Below, piece by piece: positions 7,910-17,814 of a DNA stretch of 64,000 bases. Both the position numbers and the translations under genes were made by a program. A model generated the notes under the pieces. The model did not search any database. It worked only from the letters and a program-made list of their open reading frames with translations, and was not told the DNA's origin. The stretch covers positions 4,464,001 to 4,528,000 of the forward strand of contig CM026547.1 in NCBI GenBank assembly GCA_014905635.1. Reading direction: 5' to 3'. This DNA comes from Scenedesmus sp. PABB004. Lineage: Eukaryota. Each line of letters starts with the position of its first letter. Position 1 is the first letter of the stretch.

Positions 7910-8142
7910 GCTGCACGCGTGGCGCAGGCTCGGGGCGGCTGGGCACGCAGCTGATCGGCCGTCGTGCTGCCCCGGCGGCGGTCTGCACGGCTCTGAAAAC
8001 AAGCGCGCAGCTCGGCACTTGGTCGCCGTGGGCAGCGGGACGCCGGAGCAGGTGTTGCGAGCGCGGCCGGCGGCGCGGTTCAGGCCCACCCCGCCAGCGT
8101 GCGGCGGCGCCCGTCGGCCGCTCCGACTCGCGCGCGCATGCA

Positions 8143-8557
8143 CTACCGCCAGCGCTCGCGGCGCGGAAGCAGCTTGCCGCCGGGCGCCGCCACACCTTGC
8201 CTGCGCGCGTGGGCGGCGGCGGCGGAGCGTGGGCGGCTGCCGCGGCGGCGCGCAGCTGGCCGAGGGCCCCGCAGCGCGCGTCGCGCGCGCGGCTCGCTCA
8301 CCGCACGTAGACCACGGCCAGCACGACGAGCACCGCCAGCGCGAGCACGAGGCTGTTGGTGGCCGGCAGCCAGCGCCCGCCGCGCGCCTCGGCGGCGGCG
8401 CCCTGTATCCGAATGACCGGGCTGCCGCCGTCCTCGCCGCCGGCGCTGCCGCCACCGCTCCTGTCGCTGGGCTCTGTGCCCGGCTGCGCTGCCGCGCCGT
8501 CGCCGCCTTTGCCCGCGTCGCCGCCGCCACCTGCTGTCGGCGGCGACGCACCGGCAG

Positions 8558-8597
<40 letters not shown>

Positions 8598-10629
8598 GCC
8601 TGTTTGCGCCGCCGCCGCCGCCGGCGGTGGCTGCCCCCCAGGCGGCGCGGCTGCCGCCGCTGCCCCTGCGCCCTCGCCCGCCGGCGCGCCCGCGCCGCCG
8701 CCGGCGTCGAGGCCGGCGTGCTTAAAGAGCGGCCAAGTCGCCGGGTGCGTGGGCAGCAACTCCACGAGCGCCAGCAGCGCGCGCACCCAGAGCGTGACGA
8801 CCGACTCAAAGCCCTCGCGCGTCGTGGGGTTGAACATGCGGAAGCAGTCCTCAAAGCTCGCGGCCTCGTCGCCGTAAATCTCCCACGTGAATGACATTGG
8901 CACGCCCAGCACCTCCCACATGTAGTCGGTGCCCGTGCCGTGCGCCAGGTAGCTGCGGCGGCGGCGGCGGGCGCGGCGGCGGCGCAGCGGCGGCGGTGAG
9001 CCGCAGCACAGAGAGCCGGGCGGGGCCACGGCGGCTCGCGCCTGGCCCGCACGCGCGCACCCGACGCTGTGGCCGCCGGAGCCAACGACGCACTGCGGGC
9101 ACGCGAGCTCCTTCACGCGCTGCAGCATGCGCAGCGCCGCGGCGGCGTCGGTGGTGTTGGGCACCATGGGCTTGTGGTCGTACGGCGTGAACAGCGCGAA
9201 CATGCCGCTGTGCACGTTGAGCCACGTGTGCGGCTGCAGCTCCTTGGCCAGCGCCAGCAGGATCTGCACCTCCGGCTCGCTGACACGCGGCGCGGCGCGG
9301 GCGGCGGCGGCGGAAATCGTGGCGCCGACGATACGACCGGGCGGCGGCGGCCGGCCGCGCGCGGCGGCGGCGGCCGGCCGCGCGCGGCGGCGGCGCGCGC
9401 ACGGCGGCGGCGCGTGCACGGCGGCACCTGTGCGGGGCCTTGCCGGGGAACTCTTCTTTTGGGTCGTAGTCCTTCTCCTTCTTGCCCCAGTCGATGTCCC
9501 AGTTGCGGTTGGTGTCCACGCCGCGCCCGTTCTTGCGCTCGCACAGCGCGCCGCCCTCGACGAGCGCCCGGCCGTTGACGTTCTCCATCGGCAGCACCTG
9601 CGGCGAGCGCAGGCGCGGGGCGGCAGCCGATCGCGTGCGTGGGTGTGGAGGAGGAGGGGGGTCTGCCCGCTGCCCGCTGCCGGCTGCCGGCTGCCGGCTG
9701 ACCGCCGCCCTGTCCGCGCCGGCGTGCTGCCGCCGCCGCTGCCGCCGCCGCTGCCGCCGCCGCGCGCCTTGAATACGGTGTGCTCGAGGATGGTCCGGAG
9801 GCGCGCCAGCCGCGCCCCGCCGCCCACCAGCGCCTCCAGCTGCGCGGGGTCGGCCAGCACCTGCGCCGGGGGCGCGGCAGCCACACCGTGAGCGCTTGCG
9901 TGCGCCGCCGGCGCGCCCCGTCGTGCACGCCCGCGCACCTGCAGCAGGCGCAGCCCCACTTCGCTGCTGATGAACTCCCGCCCGTGCTCCCCAAAGTCCT
10001 GCGAGCGCGGGCGGGCAGCGGTGGGCGCGGCACGCCGCCGCCGCCGCCGCCGGCGCGGGCGCGGCGGCCGCACGCAGCCGCCGCCGCGAGCAGCTCACCA
10101 CGAGCAGGCGCGCCTTGGTGCGGTGCGAAGGGCTGAGCCCGCCCAGCTCCACCGTCACCACCTGCGGGGCCGCGCGCGCGTCCCAGCTCACCGCGCGGGC
10201 GCAGGCGCGGCGCGGGCGCGCCGCCGGCCGCTGTGGCTGCTGCTGCTGCCGCGCGGCGCTGGGCGAAGGCCCCCGGGGCGCGGTGCGGCGCGCCTGCAGG
10301 TCTGCCTTGTAGTCGCCGTCCGCGGCGTGGCGCAGCTCGAGCTTCATTATGTCGGGGTGCTCCGCCACGAGCGCCTCGACCTTCGACAGCAGCTCCGTCC
10401 TGCAAGCCGCGCCGCGCGCGGCGGTTGGGGCGCGCCGCGCGGCGGCCGGGCGCGTCGGCAGGCGGGCGGCGCGCGCGGCGCACTTGCGCAGGTAGAGGGA
10501 GTAGTCCGGCTGGGCCAACGCCTTGCGGTGCGCCGGCTCGGCGGCGGCCGCGGCGGCGACCGGCGCCGCCGCGAGCGCGAGCAGCGCGGCCGTGAGCAGC
10601 GCCGCCGCCGGGGCGCGCGCGCACGGCAT
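8143..10629 (-). CDS. Zinc carboxypeptidase (M14 family) with signal peptide and C-terminal TM anchor, multi-exon
   Basis: FGEHGREFIS (HxxE), ERKNGRGVDTNRNW, SEPE, NVHSG, GTGTDYM, FTWEIYG; hydrophobic LVLALAVLVVLAVVY; last exon 8200-8143 splices in frame to TAG. Confidence 0.9.
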
Positions 10630-11012
10630 GGCCCAGCTAGCGCGCGGGGCCGGGGCGCGCCCAGGCCGGCTGCATGGGCCGCCGGCGGCCGCCGGCTGCG
10701 GGCGGCGCTGCCGCCGCTGGCGCGCCGCCGCTGCTGCTGCTGGGCGCTCGGCTGATGGGCGCCGTTGCCCTGCGGCGTGGTGGAGTTGGCCGGGACGCTG
10801 CGGGCTGGGGCGAGGGGACTGGCGTCCGGCGGCGCGGCGGCGGCGGGTGCGCACCAACCGCCTGGGTCTTTGCGCCGCAAGCGGCGATCGCTGCGCCCTG
10901 CCGCGGTCCCCACGCCTGCGCCCCGCCCGCGCGCCTCCACTGCACGCCCGCCCGACCCTCACCGAGCCCACCGCGCACGCCAGGCGCCTCAGCATCGAAG
11001 CATCGACCTTCG

Positions 11013-11195
11013 ATGCTCGCTCGCGCCGCGCGTCGCTCCAATCTCGATCGCCTCCTGCTCCTCGCGCTCACGGGCAACCTGGTGTTCGCGGGCGTGGCCG
11101 TCTACAACGAGCGCGCGCGCGCAGGGGGCATGGGAGAGCAGGAGCTGCTGGCGCGCGTCGAAGCGGCCCAGAAGGCCCACCACAAGGACGCGTGA
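11013..11195 (+). CDS. Putative 60-aa single-TM microprotein (uORF or first cistron upstream of EHD1)
   Basis: MLARAARRSNLDRLLLLALTGNLVFAGVAVYNERARAGGMGEQELLARVEAAQKAHHKDA*; GC3-biased, coding-like codons; one hydrophobic helix followed by a charged helix. Confidence 0.55.
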   Translation: MLARAARRSNLDRLLLLALTGNLVFAGVAVYNERARAGGMGEQELLARVEAAQKAHHKDA

Positions 11196-11418
11196 AGCGG
11201 GTGCGAGCGGCGCAAGGCTCCAGGCCGCGCCCGCGCGGCGCCGTCGGCCGCCGGCGCGGCGGCCGTTGTGGAGCGCGCGCTGCCGGCGCGCTGCCGCGCG
11301 CCGCGCGCCGCTCACGCCAGCCGTCGCCGCCGCCCGGCAGGCCGGATAGACTAGGTTAGACAGCAGCAGCGACAGCGACAGCAGCGACAGCAACAGCAGC
11401 AGCAGCAGCAGCGGCGCC

Positions 11419-14400
11419 ATGGCCGACGCCAATGCGGCCATCTACGACCGCTGGTTCAAGGTCGCCGACGCCGACCAGGACGGCCGCGTGACCGGCGCCG
11501 ACGCGGTCGCGTGAGCGCCGCCGCCGCCGCCACCGCCGCCGCTGCCGCCGCCGCGGGGGCCGGGCCGCGCGCAGCCCTCGGTGTCCGCCGTGCGCGCCCG
11601 CGCCGAGCCGCGGCGCCGCGCCGCGCCACGCCCGCCGCGTAGCTTCTTCCAGCGCAGCGGACTGCCCAAGGAGGTGCTGGCCAAGGTGTGGGACCTCGCC
11701 AACAGCCAGCGCGCCGGCTACCTGGACCGCCCCGCCTTCCACAAGGCGATGGGGCTCATCGCCCTGGCGCAGAGCGGCAAGGACGTGACGCGGTGCGGCC
11801 CCGCGCGCCGCGCCACAGCCGGCCGGCCCGCGCGTCGCGGCCGCCCCATGGCGGCGGCGGCAGCCGCGCGGCGGGCTTGCTGAGCCATCGCCGCCGCCGC
11901 CGCCGTGGCGCGCGCAGCGACAACTACCTGGCCGCGCTGGAGGAGGGCGTCGCGCTGCCCACAATGGCGGGCCTGGACCTCCGGCCCTCGGGTGCGACGG
12001 CGGCGGCGGCGGTGGCGGCGGAGCGGGTCCCGGCCGGGCCCTGCGCCGCAGCAGCCAGCCAGAGGGGCCGGCAGCTGCCTGAGCCCGGCCCCGCCCGCGC
12101 CCCTGCCGCTCGTGCGCGCAGGCGGCGGCACGCACCCCCGGGCGCGCCCGAGCCCGGCGCGGGCGCGCCCGCGGCGGCGCCCGGCCCCGCCCGCGACGCC
12201 GCGTCCAACGGCGGCTACGCCTCGCCGCGCGCACGGGTGCGCGCCGCGCGAGCGCGGGCCGCGCTCGCGCGGGCCCTGCCCGCGCCGCGCCACGCCCGAG
12301 CCGCCCGTCGCCGCGCGCCGGCGCCGCAGCCGCCGCAGCAGGAGGCCGCGACGCCGCCGCGCGGCAAGGGCGGCAAGAAGCCGCTGCCGGCCAAGGTCGT
12401 GACCTCCATCATCGACGGCCTCAAGGCAATCTACTTCTCAAAGGCGAGCCGCCTTGGCCTGCCGGCATGGCACGCGCGTGCATTGCACGCGGTGCCCGTG
12501 GCGCCGCGCCGCGCCGCGCGCGGCGCCGCGCGCCGCTGTTGCGCCCGCTCGGCGCCGGCGGCGCGCGCCGCGGCCGCGCACGAGCCCCGCCGCGGCCGCG
12601 CCGCGCCGCGCAGGTGCGGCCGCTGGAGGACGCGTTCAAGTTTGGCAGCTTCTTCAGCCCGCTGCTCACGGAGAGCGACTTTGAGGCCAAGCCGAGCGTG
12701 CTGCTCCTCGGCCAGTACAGCACAGGCGCGCGCGGGCGCGGGCGGGGCGGCCGCGTGGCCCGCCCGCCAGCCCTGCCCGCCAGCCCCGTCAGCCCCGCGC
12801 GCCGTGGGCCGCCGCCCGCCGGTCACCGCCGCCGCTGCTCGCGCCGCGTGGCGCCAGGCAAGACCACGTTCATCAAGTTCCTGCTCGGCACTGACTACCC
12901 GGGGTGCCACATCGGGCCCGAGCCGACGACCGACCGGTGCGCCGCGCCCCCGGCCGCGGCGCCTCGGGCGCGGCGCACGCTGGGCCCCAGGCCCACCGCC
13001 GCGCGCCCGCCGCCCGCCCGCGCGCCGCGTGTCGCGGCGCGCAGGTTTGTGGTGGTGCAGCACGGCCTCGAGGAGCGCCGCACGCCCGGCAACACGCTCG
13101 CGGTGCAGCCCGACAAGCCCTACCAGGGGCTCAGCATGTTTGGCACGGGTGCGACCTAGCTAGCACCGCCGCCGCGCACGCGACACCGCCGCCCGCCACC
13201 ACCCCGCGCCGCGCGCCGCCGCGCCCCGCCCCACGCCGCCGGCCGCCCCTCCCTGCTCGCGCCGCGGCCAGGCTTCCTCTCGCGCTTCGAGGGCGCCTCG
13301 TGCCCCGCCAAGCTGCTGGAGGAGATCACCATCATCGACACGCCCGGCGTGCTCAGCGGCGAGAAGCAGGCGCGCGCCGCCCCCGCGCCGCCGGGACGCC
13401 GCCGGCCGAGCCCGCCGCCGCCGCGCCCGAAGCACCCCCGTGCAGCACACGCCCGCCGACGCGCGCCGCCGCCCACCGACGCGCGCCGCCGCGCCGCTCA
13501 ACGCGCCGCCGCCCGCCGACGCGCGCCGCCACACCGGTCAACGCCCCGCCGCCGCCCGTTGCGTGCGCGCGCGCGCAGCGCATCGAGCGCAACTACCAGT
13601 TCATCGACGTCTGCGAGTGGTTTGCGGTGCGCTCCGACCTCATCCTGCTGCTCTTCGACCCCTACAAGTGAGCCCCGCGCGGGCAGGCGGCGGGCGGCGC
13701 GCTGGCTGCGGGTGGCGCTCGCCGCGCGGCGCGCGTCCGGGCGCGCGGGCTGGCCGGCGGCGCGCCCACCCGCCGCCGCGCCCGCCGCCAGGCTGGACAT
13801 CAGCGACGAGTTCAAGCAGGTCATCAGCACGCTCAAGGGCCACGACGACAAGGCGCGCGGGCAGCGCACGCGCCGGCGCCGCCCCCGGCGCGGTGCCCCG
13901 GCGCGCCCCCGCTCGCTGCAGACGCCCCGCTGTTTTTTTCACGCGTGCGCCGCTTGTTGACACGCGCGCGCGCGCACACGCGCAGGTGCGCATCATCCTG
14001 AACAAGAGCGACCAGGTGGACCAGCAGCAGCTCATGCGCGTGTACGGCGCGCTCATGTGGTCCCTCGGTAAGGTCTTCAAGAGCCCAGAGGTCTGCAAGG
14101 TGGGCGCGGCCCCGAGCAGCCCGCGGCGCGGCGGCGTGCGCGGGGCGCTGCCGCCGGCCGCGCAGGGGCACGCCGCGCACGCCGCTCGACCGCGCGCTGC
14201 GCCTCGCTGCGCGCCGCGCCGCGCCGCCGAATGCGCCGCCGGCCGCGCTGCGCCGGCAGGTCTACATCGGCAGCTTCAACGCCGACGCGCCGATCGACGC
14301 GACCAAGAACCCGCACTGCGTGGACCTGTTTGGCAAGGAGCAGGCGCAGCTGCTGCACGACCTCTATGAGATACCCACGCGCTCCTGCGACCGCAAGGCG

Positions 14401-15207
14401 CGCGCGCCGCGCCTCCGCCGTCGCCTGCCCGCCGCGCCGCGCCGCGCCGCGCTGCGGCCTGCCCGCCGCAACCAAACTCAACCCAACTCACCCTCAACTT
14501 GACCCAACCCAACCTGGATCAAACTAAACCCAAACCCAGATCAACGAGTTTGTCAAGCGCGTGCGCGCGTTCCGCATCCACCTGCTCATCATGGGCCACA
14601 TGCGCGCCCACATGCCGGCCATGTTTGGCAAGGACAAGGCGGCGCGCAAGATGCTGGAGCACCTGCCAGACATCTTCTACCAGGCGCGCACCGCGCGACG
14701 CGGCGCGGCGCAGCGCACAGCGCAGCGCGGCGCGGCCCGCCGCACTGGCGTGGCGGCTCGCGGCGAGCGCGCGCCCACGCCCGCCTGCCGGTCGCCCGCC
14801 CGCCGCCCGCCGGCGCTGCGCGCCGCCGCGGCCGCAGGTGCAGCGCGAGCACCACCTGCCGGCGGGGGACTTCCCGGACGTGCACCGCTTCAGGGACATC
14901 CTGTCTGCGTTTGACCTCAGCGCCTTCCCCAAGATGAGCAAGTCCATGGTCAAGCAGGCGCGCTGGCCGCACGGCTGCGCCGGGCCGGGCCGGCGGCCGC
15001 GCCCCCCCGCGCGCCCGCGCCGGGCCGGCGGGTCGCGCGCGCGCGCGCGCGCCGCGCCTGGCGCCCGCGCCGCGGCCGCCGCCGACGAGCCGGGCGCGAC
15101 ACCGCGGCCGTGACCGTGACCGCGCGGCCGCGCGCGCGCAGATCGACGACGTGCTGAGCATCGACGTGCCCAACCTGGTGCGCGCGTTTGACAACCCCTA
15201 CCAGTGA
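11419..15207 (+). CDS. EHD1: EH-domain-containing dynamin-like protein, plant-type with N-terminal EH domain; about 16 exons
   Basis: EH: WFKVADADQDGRVTGADAV|FFQRSGLPKEVLAKVWDLA. P-loop LLGQYSTG|KTTFI, IGPEPTTD, IIDTPGVLSGEKQ, LLFDPYK, ILNKSDQV; ends RAFDNPYQ*. Confidence 0.95.
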
Positions 15208-15571: not shown

Positions 15572-16006
15572 CCGCGGTCACCGCCGCTGGCCGCCGCTGC
15601 GCTGCCTGCCGCCGCGCGCGCGCCGGTGCCGCCCCGGCCGCCCGGCGCCGTCGCGGCCTCCCTCGTGGGGCACCTGCGGCGTCGCCCCGATCTCGGGTGC
15701 GTGGAGCTCCCCTGGCCAGGGGAGCTGCGCTGCCATGGCAGCGCTGAGCTCGGGCGATTCGAGGGTGGTCATCAGCGGCCGCCCGGTGACAAAGGGTTCC
15801 AGGTGCCCCCGTCGCTGCTCGCGCGCTGCTGGGGCCACGCCTGACCGCTGGAGGCGTGCCGGGTCGGGGCGCAGCCACGCGCGCGCGTGCGCGGCAGCGC
15901 AGCAGTCGCGCGCTCTCGCCGCGCGCCCACGCGCCGCCCTCGCCCGCGCGCCGCCACAGCTCCGGCCTAGACAACGAACTGCAGCCCTAGGCTACGCACT
16001 GCCCGC
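15572..16006 (+). repeat. Copy 1 of a ~420-bp direct repeat (copy 2 at 17402-17814)
   Basis: Long near-identical blocks in both copies, e.g. GGGCGATTCGAGGGTGGTCATCAGCGGCCGCCCGGTGACAAAGGG and CCACAGCTCCGGCCTAGACAACGAACTGCAGCCCTAGG. Confidence 0.95.
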
Positions 16007-16283: not shown

Positions 16284-17182
16284 CTAGCGCCCCGCGGGGC
16301 GCGCGCCGCCGCCCGCGGGCGCGGCGGGCGCGACGTTTGCGACCACGCCAAACGCCAGCCACTCGTCGCCCCAGTCGCCGCCGGGACGCAGCGCGCCGGC
16401 GGCCAGGCTGATGCGGCCTTTGTAAGAGTTCTCGCGCGAGGTGAAGGCGCTGCGCGGCGCAGCGGGGGACGCGGCGCGGCGAGGTGAGCCTCTCGCGCGG
16501 GGCGGCAGGCGGGCGGCGCGGGCCGGCCGGGGGCGGCGCGCGCACGCGCGCGCGGGCGCGACTCGGCGGCGGCGCGGCGCACCACTCGAGCTTGGCGCCG
16601 GGCGCCAGCGGCAGCGGCAGCTTGCGCCCGCCGCACGCGTCGAGGCGCAGGCGCTGGCGGATGTCGTCGCGGGTCACGCCCGCCGCGTCCATGAAGCGCG
16701 CGTCAACCACCACGACCCCGACCTGCGCGGGGCGGGCGGGGGGGGGGGGGGGGGTGGCGTTGGCGCGCGGCGCCGGTGCTGCCGGCGGCTGGCGCGCGGC
16801 GCCGGTGCTGGCGGCGGCTGGCGCGCATGTTATCGCCGCGGCGGCGCAGCGGGCGCCGCGGCGGGGGCGGCCGCGCAGCGGCCTGCGCACCGTGACGGGC
16901 TTGTTGCCGGTGTTGGTGATAACGGCGACGCCGGCGGCCTTGTTGCCGACGCGGGACGCCTTGATCGCCAGGCGCAGCGGCGGCTCGGCGCCCGCGGCCG
17001 CGCCGGCGTGCGCCGCGGCTGCGGCGCGGCGGCGGCACGGGCGCGTCGGCGAGAGGCACAGCGTGCGAGCCCGGGGCGCGGCCCGGGCGCCGCGCCGCAG
17101 CGGCGGCGGGGCGGGCCGGGCGGCGAGCAGCGGCGAGCACACCCGCGAGGAGCAACGTGGCCACGAAGACGCGGGCCGCCAT
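16284..17182 (-). CDS. Small secreted hypothetical protein, possibly Ig-like beta-sandwich; 4 exons
   Basis: MAARVFVATLLLA|AAHAGAAAGAEPPLRLAIKASRVGNKAAGVAVITNTGNKPVT|VGVVVVDARF..CGGRKLPLPLAPGAKLEC|AFTSRENSYKG..AGR*; GT-AG junctions join in frame. Confidence 0.7.
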
Positions 17183-17401: not shown

Positions 17402-17814
17402 CCGAGGTCACCGCGCTGGGGCCGCCGCTTCGCTGCCTGCCGCCGCGCGTGCACCGGTGCCGCCCCCGGCCGCCCGGCGCCCTCGCGGCCCGGCTCGTGG
17501 GGCACCTGCGGCGTCGCCCCGATCTCGGGTGCGTGGAGCTCCCCTGGCAGCGCTGAGGTCGGGCGATTCGAGGGTGGTCATCAGCGGCCGCCCGGTGACA
17601 AAGGGCTACAGTGCCCCCGTCGCTGCTCACGCGCTGCTGGGGCCACGCCTGACCGCTGGAGGCGTGCCGGATCGAGGCGCAGCCACGCGCGCGCGTGCGC
17701 GGCAGCGCAGCAGTCGCGCGCTCTCGCCGCGCGCCCACGCGCCGCCCTCGCCCGCGCGCCGCCACAGCTCCGGCCTAGACAACGAACTGCAGCCCTAGGT
17801 CACGCACTGCCCGC
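17402..17814 (+). repeat. Copy 2 of the direct repeat; occupies the putative promoter/5'UTR of the PPR-cyclin gene
   Basis: Matches 15572-16006 and ends 17 nt before ATG 17832. Confidence 0.95.

Follow-up and report, generated by a model that had tools for sequence, protein, structure and literature searches.

Gene arrangement around ORF1 and EHD1

The window analysed here is a 64,000-nucleotide (nt) stretch of CM026547.1 of Scenedesmus sp. PABB004, and feature positions are given in window coordinates. The assembly spans 39.97 Mb, and the genome is compact with a GC content of 79% (70–83% in the window). On the plus strand, a small open reading frame of 60 amino acids (aa), termed ORF1, ends 223 nt short of the ATG of an EHD1-like gene at 11419 (Table 1). 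An earlier note on this DNA proposed that ORF1 encodes an unannotated membrane microprotein which is co-transcribed with EHD1 and linked to it by an intron between the two frames. The coding-like character of ORF1 and its spacing from EHD1 were confirmed, and ORF1 has homologues beyond chance expectation, as described below.

The downstream gene is indeed EHD1-like: Pfam matches to PF12763 (EH, E 9e-10), PF16880 (EHD_N, E 1e-9) and PF18150 (DUF5600, E 4e-11) occur in the order EH, EHD_N, DUF5600, which is the mark of plant-type EHD/RME-1 proteins. Sixteen exons were obtained both by hand and by a hidden Markov model (HMM) gene model. At 11992–12121 of EHD1, a good GT donor (11992) breaks the frame and the model takes a GC donor at 12023 instead; the cause would be either a splice site that is weak or an error of one base in the assembly.

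The HMM gene finder was seeded on EHD1, from sequence alone. Its training set was the 464 kb surrounding the window, with 151 genes and 851 introns, and 400 kb of two other contigs served as a held-out test; it may split or truncate genes, so that all counts derived from it are approximate. The start-context model was self-trained (134 training starts), and the held-out starts used with it (n = 111) were picked without the context term. Of the introns predicted in the 464 kb, 203 of 851 begin with a GC donor, and TGA is the stop codon in 115 of the 134 training genes. The presence of GC-AG donors, of short introns and of a REX1-S/REX1-B gene pair suggests a chlorophyte green alga.

Table 1. 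Features at and next to the ORF1–EHD1 locus (window coordinates).
Feature	Position	Strand	Remarks
ORF1, 60-aa conserved microprotein (predicted)	11013..11195	+	short basic N-terminus; hydrophobic helix at about residues 14–32; C-terminal helix ending Q-K-x-x-H
Perfect 10-bp stem with 7-nt loop over the ORF1 AUG	10991..11017	+	10991–11000 pairs with 11008–11017
Sole internal AUG between the ORF1 and EHD1 starts	11130..11132	+	in the ORF1 frame; weak context, 5th–9th percentile
Inter-ORF spacer, 223 nt, ATG-free	11196..11418	+	83 nt after splicing of the candidate intron
Candidate GT-AG intron, 140 nt	11201..11340	+	CTCAC branch-like motif at 11311–11315; probable
A-rich (31% A) CAG-repeat leader ahead of EHD1	11341..11418	+	each of the three frames closes no more than 20 nt past the acceptor
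EHD1-like gene	11419..15207	+	N-terminal EH domain, then EHD_N and DUF5600; start codon in strong context; 16 exons predicted
Candidate 5' untranslated region (UTR) intron, uncertain	10847..10992	+	donor at 25th percentile; acceptors 10983 and 10992 weak; CTCAC present
'Presequence exon' of the earlier note	10765..10846	+	at most 5'-UTR or promoter sequence; non-coding
M14 zinc carboxypeptidase-like gene, divergent neighbour	8143..10629	-	ATG 383 nt from the ORF1 ATG

The ORF1 protein family

ORF1 is almost certainly a real and conserved protein-coding gene, as judged from its predicted product and its relatives. A phmmer search with ORF1 against 1.84 billion representatives gave six matches at E<=0.001, and three of these are full-length relatives: P0003 (E 3e-10, 57% identity), P0005 (E 4.4e-7, 44% identity) and P0007 (E 3e-4, 43% identity). 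The other three (P0002, P0004 and P0006) were discarded as long repeat proteins on inspection. A four-sequence profile run against 5661 candidates recovered six proteins, including three new ones (P0010, E 1.7e-23; P0011, E 1.6e-18; P0012, E 6.3e-6). Together these searches yield six homologue clusters, which are 38–59% identical to ORF1, have called lengths of 60–110 aa, and have in common the start, a single hydrophobic helix, an invariant Asn and the stop region. The seven-sequence alignment contains 11 invariant columns, including the Asn in the hydrophobic stretch and, at the C-terminal end, Q, K and H; substitutions are conservative and length is conserved. P0005, P0007, P0010 and P0011 begin at most three residues from the ORF1 Met, P0003 carries an internal Met there, and four of the six clusters end 2–8 residues past the conserved His. 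In its own genome ORF1 is single copy, the only protein match to this single-protein query being itself. The records behind the homologues are those of Logan, ENA and JGI, with no NCBI or UniRef source among them, and the sole name attached to them is 'hypothetical protein'. The P0012 sequence looks as if it runs on through an intron-like insert, and this suggests that the hosts are eukaryotic.

The family is predicted to insert into membranes by a single pass. The top Kyte-Doolittle 19-mer is 1.76–2.01 in all seven proteins tested, and in six of the seven the stretch ahead of the hydropathy peak carries a net +2 or +3 charge. An AlphaFold2 model of ORF1 has helices at residues 2–36 and 42–59 (predicted local distance difference test, pLDDT, 74; predicted template-modelling score, pTM, 0.35). 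The designation of ORF1 as an unannotated membrane microprotein is well supported through conservation.

Codon statistics are less favourable than conservation. ORF1 has a coding score of +1.9 nats in the HMM, versus -39 and -75 in its other two frames; all 106 intergenic ATG ORFs of 40–90 aa score lower than ORF1. On the opposite side, its codon signal is 0.011 nats/nt versus an exon median of 0.157, far under typical exons; its GC content at third codon positions is 0.88, versus 0.93 at the 10th percentile; and the HMM gene finder missed ORF1 at default and called only its last 21 codons under relaxed settings. A single-sequence word search with ORF1 gave no candidate, and the exact sequence is absent from a 15-billion protein collection. 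The weak codon signal and this absence would fit a chance, non-coding frame within a GC-rich UTR, which is nevertheless extremely unlikely: six homologue clusters exist independently of one another, their length is kept and their substitutions are conservative, and ORF1 scores above all the intergenic ORFs compared.

The homologues also bear on whether ORF1 is complete as drawn. The earlier note regarded 10765–10846 as a possible, presequence-like upstream exon; ORF1 would then be the final exon of a gene for a longer precursor with a targeting presequence. The splice arithmetic stands, since the donor at 10847 and the acceptors at 10983 or 10992 join in frame with CTCAC present, and an assembly indel might mask a link to an ATG at 10755. 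A coding role is not supported: the frame is closed by a TGA at 10753 and contains no ATG, the exon scores as non-coding (-6.7 nats), and the acceptors are at only the 2nd and 6th percentiles. Moreover, four homologues begin at the ORF1 Met position, and the extensions of P0003, P0009 and P0013 do not align to the 10765–10846 segment; a longer precursor is accordingly considered very unlikely. A palindromic donor at 10847–10854 was also considered for a minus-strand 5'-UTR intron, the acceptor of which has no valid score. At the other end, in-frame splicing of ORF1 to EHD1 might produce a membrane-anchored EHD1 isoform, as a GT at 11192 is phase-compatible with CAG acceptors at 11363–11411 and in the frame of EHD1 the CAG repeat would encode a Ser/Asp linker. 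Such a fusion is highly improbable: the donor is at the 5th percentile, the acceptors score at most 1.0, and most homologue clusters stop shortly past the conserved His, as noted above. The lack of a fused form among 8000 candidates of 194–2000 aa is weak evidence in the same direction.

ORF1 has no Pfam match, none of the seven family members reaches COX6C/SMIM20-type models at E<=1, no PDB sequence matches the family at an E-value under 0.9, and Foldseek with the two-helix ORF1 model gave no assignable family. ESM-Atlas neighbours of ORF1 are small single-pass proteins with values of 0.79–0.87, all under the 0.9 level and hence leads only, and they were not reproduced with P0005 as the query. 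COX6C (PF02937), SMIM20/MITRAC7 (PF15061) and DUF4748 (PF15932) resemble ORF1 in size, in the short basic N-terminus and in having one transmembrane helix followed by a helical tail (ESM-Atlas 0.79–0.81, under the 0.9 level), but show no Pfam match to it at E<=1. A supposed likeness to Cbp4/UQCC3, also small single-pass mitochondrial proteins, was not borne out by Pfam models, and a genome search with PF07960 was without match and uninformative.

To judge from these predicted features, ORF1 most likely serves a membrane complex as a small subunit with an accessory or assembly function. Its N-terminus would lie on the positive-inside side, and the invariant intramembrane Asn would pack against a partner helix. 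Placement in the mitochondrial inner membrane is a tentative guess resting on weak leads. A direct action with EHD1 is less likely than a role in that membrane, because no NPF motif was found in ORF1.

Start codons, spacer and candidate intron

The ORF1 AUG has a T at -3, as do only 5 of 134 starts, and its context falls at the 1st percentile of training starts; the internal AUG at 11130 is at the 5th percentile and the EHD1 AUG at the 60th. Held-out starts give the same ranking, with 5/111 scoring lower than 11013, 10/111 lower than 11130 and 74/111 lower than 11419. A weak context at the first ORF and a strong one at the second is a pattern reported for algal bicistrons, for which leaky scanning has been tested in vivo (Duenas et al., 2025, PMC11892635).

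The perfect 10-bp stem described over the ORF1 ATG is present and is rare in the 464 kb, being among four distinct places with a hairpin of at least 10 bp and at most 60% GC. None of the 151 predicted starts lies inside any of 401 such hairpins. The stem alone has a modest energy of -13.1 kcal/mol; the ORF1 AUG has an unpaired probability of 0.0004 and is more paired than all 139 training starts. A role of this AUG-covering stem is possible.

The spacer between ORF1 and EHD1 contains neither ATG nor TGTAA/TGCAA. TGTAA is the usual chlorophyte poly(A) signal (PMC1868727; Gallaher et al., 2021, PMC7896298). In the DNA analysed here, TGTAA is not enriched: three copies occur in the window, 39 versus 35 expected in the 464 kb, and 14 of 139 stops are followed by one. 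TGCAA is enriched after stops compared with before starts (40/139 versus 10/139), and TG[CT]AA is found in 25 of 62 tandem gaps. The lack of both motifs in the spacer, correctly reported in the earlier note, is uninformative, as TG[CT]AA occurs within the first 223 nt after the stop in 28 of 115 held-out genes and is absent in the other 87; likewise, neither motif occurs in the 3' region of EHD1 itself, from the stop at 15207 to the next predicted coding sequence at 16284. Gaps between tandem genes have a median of 543 nt in the 464 kb, with 7/68 at or below 223 nt, and of 436–447 nt in held-out DNA, with 8/52 or 3/49 at or below 223 nt. The argument that the spacer has no motif and little room for a terminator plus promoter is thus weak and overstated, because the motif is mostly absent after stops in this genome and short gaps are not rare. 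Several gaps of 198–336 nt bear TG[CT]AAC 10–206 nt past the stop; therefore, true separate gene pairs fit such a space.

An intron within the spacer is the remaining structural claim. The GT at 11201, 5 nt past the ORF1 stop, the CAG ending at 11340 and a CTCAC located 27 nt from the acceptor are all present. A candidate of 140 nt, with 13% A+T and with its CTCAC so placed, is typical in all three respects. CTCAC is enriched near the 3' ends of 888 introns (130 versus 8). The donor ranks at the 17th percentile, as does the acceptor, and by splice sites alone 23/109 and 27/85 post-stop windows score equally well. Only if the branch motif is demanded does the candidate stand out from chance: its score is then reached by 3/109 and 4/85 (7/194) sense windows and by 0/109 and 1/85 (1/194) antisense windows, versus 154/799 predicted introns. 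The likelihood ratio for 11201–11340 as a real intron is roughly 5 or more. In addition, A content rises from 6% to 31% precisely at the acceptor, and 31% is reached by 0/139 and 0/115 other leaders. Splicing would place EHD1 out of frame with ORF1, and all three frames close soon after the acceptor.

One shared mRNA or two adjacent genes

Nuclear bicistronic loci have been described in green algae, including REX1-S/REX1-B, TOM22-like/SDHAF3-like, OST4-first and CDC26/TTM3 loci (Gallaher et al., 2021; Duenas et al., 2025). As at ORF1/EHD1, these loci have a small and easily missed first ORF, often for a small subunit-like protein, a short same-strand spacer, a second ORF out of frame with the first, a weak first and a strong second start context, and few AUGs before the second ORF. 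In Chlamydomonas reinhardtii the median first ORF is 357 nt and the median spacer 183 nt (Duenas et al., 2025), and ORF1 size and its 223-nt spacer are compatible with published bicistrons. Published cases rest on long reads, ribosome profiling (Ribo-seq) and cross-species colinearity, whereas ORF1/EHD1 is known from sequence alone, and ORF1, unlike the first cistrons of those loci, belongs to no described family. As a control, REX1-S (Tfb5, E 2e-10) ends 48 nt upstream of REX1-B in the present genome; therefore, a known bicistronic arrangement is kept here. Only REX1 was usable, as PF13233 gave no match and spacers could not be measured at the short or ambiguous loci of CYTH and LYR. At locus L042 (about 990–1024), a short upstream ORF overlaps the REX1-S start codon by TAATG. 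Seven near-equal CYTH-like matches on contigs C21, C34, C35, C52, C57 and C64 suggest a repeated element or duplicated segment.

These sequence features, together with the analogy to loci reported by Duenas et al. (2025), tip the balance slightly toward ORF1 and EHD1 being on one mRNA, with ORF1 as the first cistron and EHD1 read by leaky scanning. In this mechanism, ORF1 would be transcribed from a promoter region shared divergently with the carboxypeptidase gene, and the same mRNA would run on into EHD1; removal of 11201–11340 would leave an 83-nt linker between the ORF1 stop side and EHD1. Scanning ribosomes would often bypass the poor-context, stem-paired ORF1 AUG and the weak in-frame AUG at 11130, and would then initiate at the strong EHD1 AUG as in other algal bicistrons (by analogy; Duenas et al., 2025). 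The contrast of start contexts, the stem-buried AUG, the ATG-free spacer, the branch-bearing intron candidate that is rarer than chance and the REX1 bicistron in this genome all speak for a shared mRNA.

Two separate, tightly packed genes, with the ORF1 mRNA ending in the spacer and the EHD1 start site in the spacer or ORF1, are a plausible though less favoured explanation; the intron candidate would then be a chance occurrence or a 5'-UTR intron of EHD1, with at most occasional read-through. The short predicted tandem gaps of this genome and the 198–336-nt gaps with TG[CT]AAC are consistent with it, and the annotated lists of exclusive bicistrons do not include EHD1 (Gallaher et al., 2021). 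Also, in Arabidopsis an intron between tandem genes can bypass termination of the first gene, as seems conceivable here; in that plant both genes have their own transcripts, translation of the second ORF from read-through transcripts is rare, and nonsense-mediated decay removes these transcripts (Kurihara et al., 2022, PMC9768141). Separate genes fit less well with the weak context of ORF1 beside the strong one of EHD1, which, unlike in the Arabidopsis case, favours translation of the second ORF, with the branch-bearing intron candidate immediately past the ORF1 stop and with the tiny size of ORF1, which is typical among algal first cistrons.

Several results count against a shared mRNA, or reduce the weight of the features cited for it. 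ATG is missing also from 41/109 post-stop 223-nt windows, and gaps at or below 223 nt make up 6–15% of predicted tandem pairs, being short but not rare. Taken as a pair, the splice sites rank only at the 14th percentile among predicted introns. The branch criterion, although that of the earlier note itself, was added after the first null came out negative. Five of 115 held-out starts likewise are <1% unpaired, and overall folding at the ORF1 start is ordinary (z -1.08, 26/200 shuffles; 55th percentile). EHD-related terms were not found in the readable annotation of PMC7896298, in which partially polycistronic loci are given by ID only.

In scans for homologous loci, the ORF1 alignment confirmed 0/597 metagenome, 0/188 genome and 0/187 viral pattern matches, and an EHD1 segment confirmed 0/597 metagenome pattern matches. 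The supplements of PMC11892635 gave no EHD match, which has little weight as the opened part holds IDs only, and none of the papers listed for EHD1 with Chlamydomonas or with bicistronic terms concerns an EHD1 bicistron. A size-matched pair, Cre16.g686789/Cre16.g686800 (195 and 1719 nt), was set aside, its only listing being in a phosphate-transporter paper. As the general phenomenon is established in algae, a bicistron at EHD1 would be only moderately surprising; the ORF1 protein family was not found described. This conserved microprotein family is missed by gene callers, and no Pfam, PDB or named member was found. If the shared mRNA is true, the locus would offer a testable natural case of a core trafficking gene expressed behind a small ORF. 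It would also have two candidate controls, the AUG-covering stem and the linker intron, which go beyond the accessible discussion in PMC11892635; the words 'intron' and 'hairpin' are absent from the main text of that paper, so that neither a spliced linker nor an AUG-occluding stem is described there. It is conceivable, if improbable, that stem and spliced linker set the ORF1:EHD1 ratio and that the microprotein pairs stoichiometrically with EHD1, as its membrane partner, in the endosomal recycling of algae; the locus would then be a conserved bicistron governed by more than Kozak context.

Elsewhere in the window, a 12-codon upstream ORF (10637–10675, minus strand) closes just ahead of the carboxypeptidase ATG. 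On the same strand, a gap of 233 nt (7910–8142) separates the end of the carboxypeptidase-like gene from the start of a predicted FA_desaturase_2 gene (E 2e-24); it also lacks TG[CT]AA and is a second short tandem gap within the window. Downstream of EHD1, a near-identical element of about 400 nt was seen by eye twice, at about 15580–15990 and 17420–17810, on either side of a small minus-strand gene (16284–17182).

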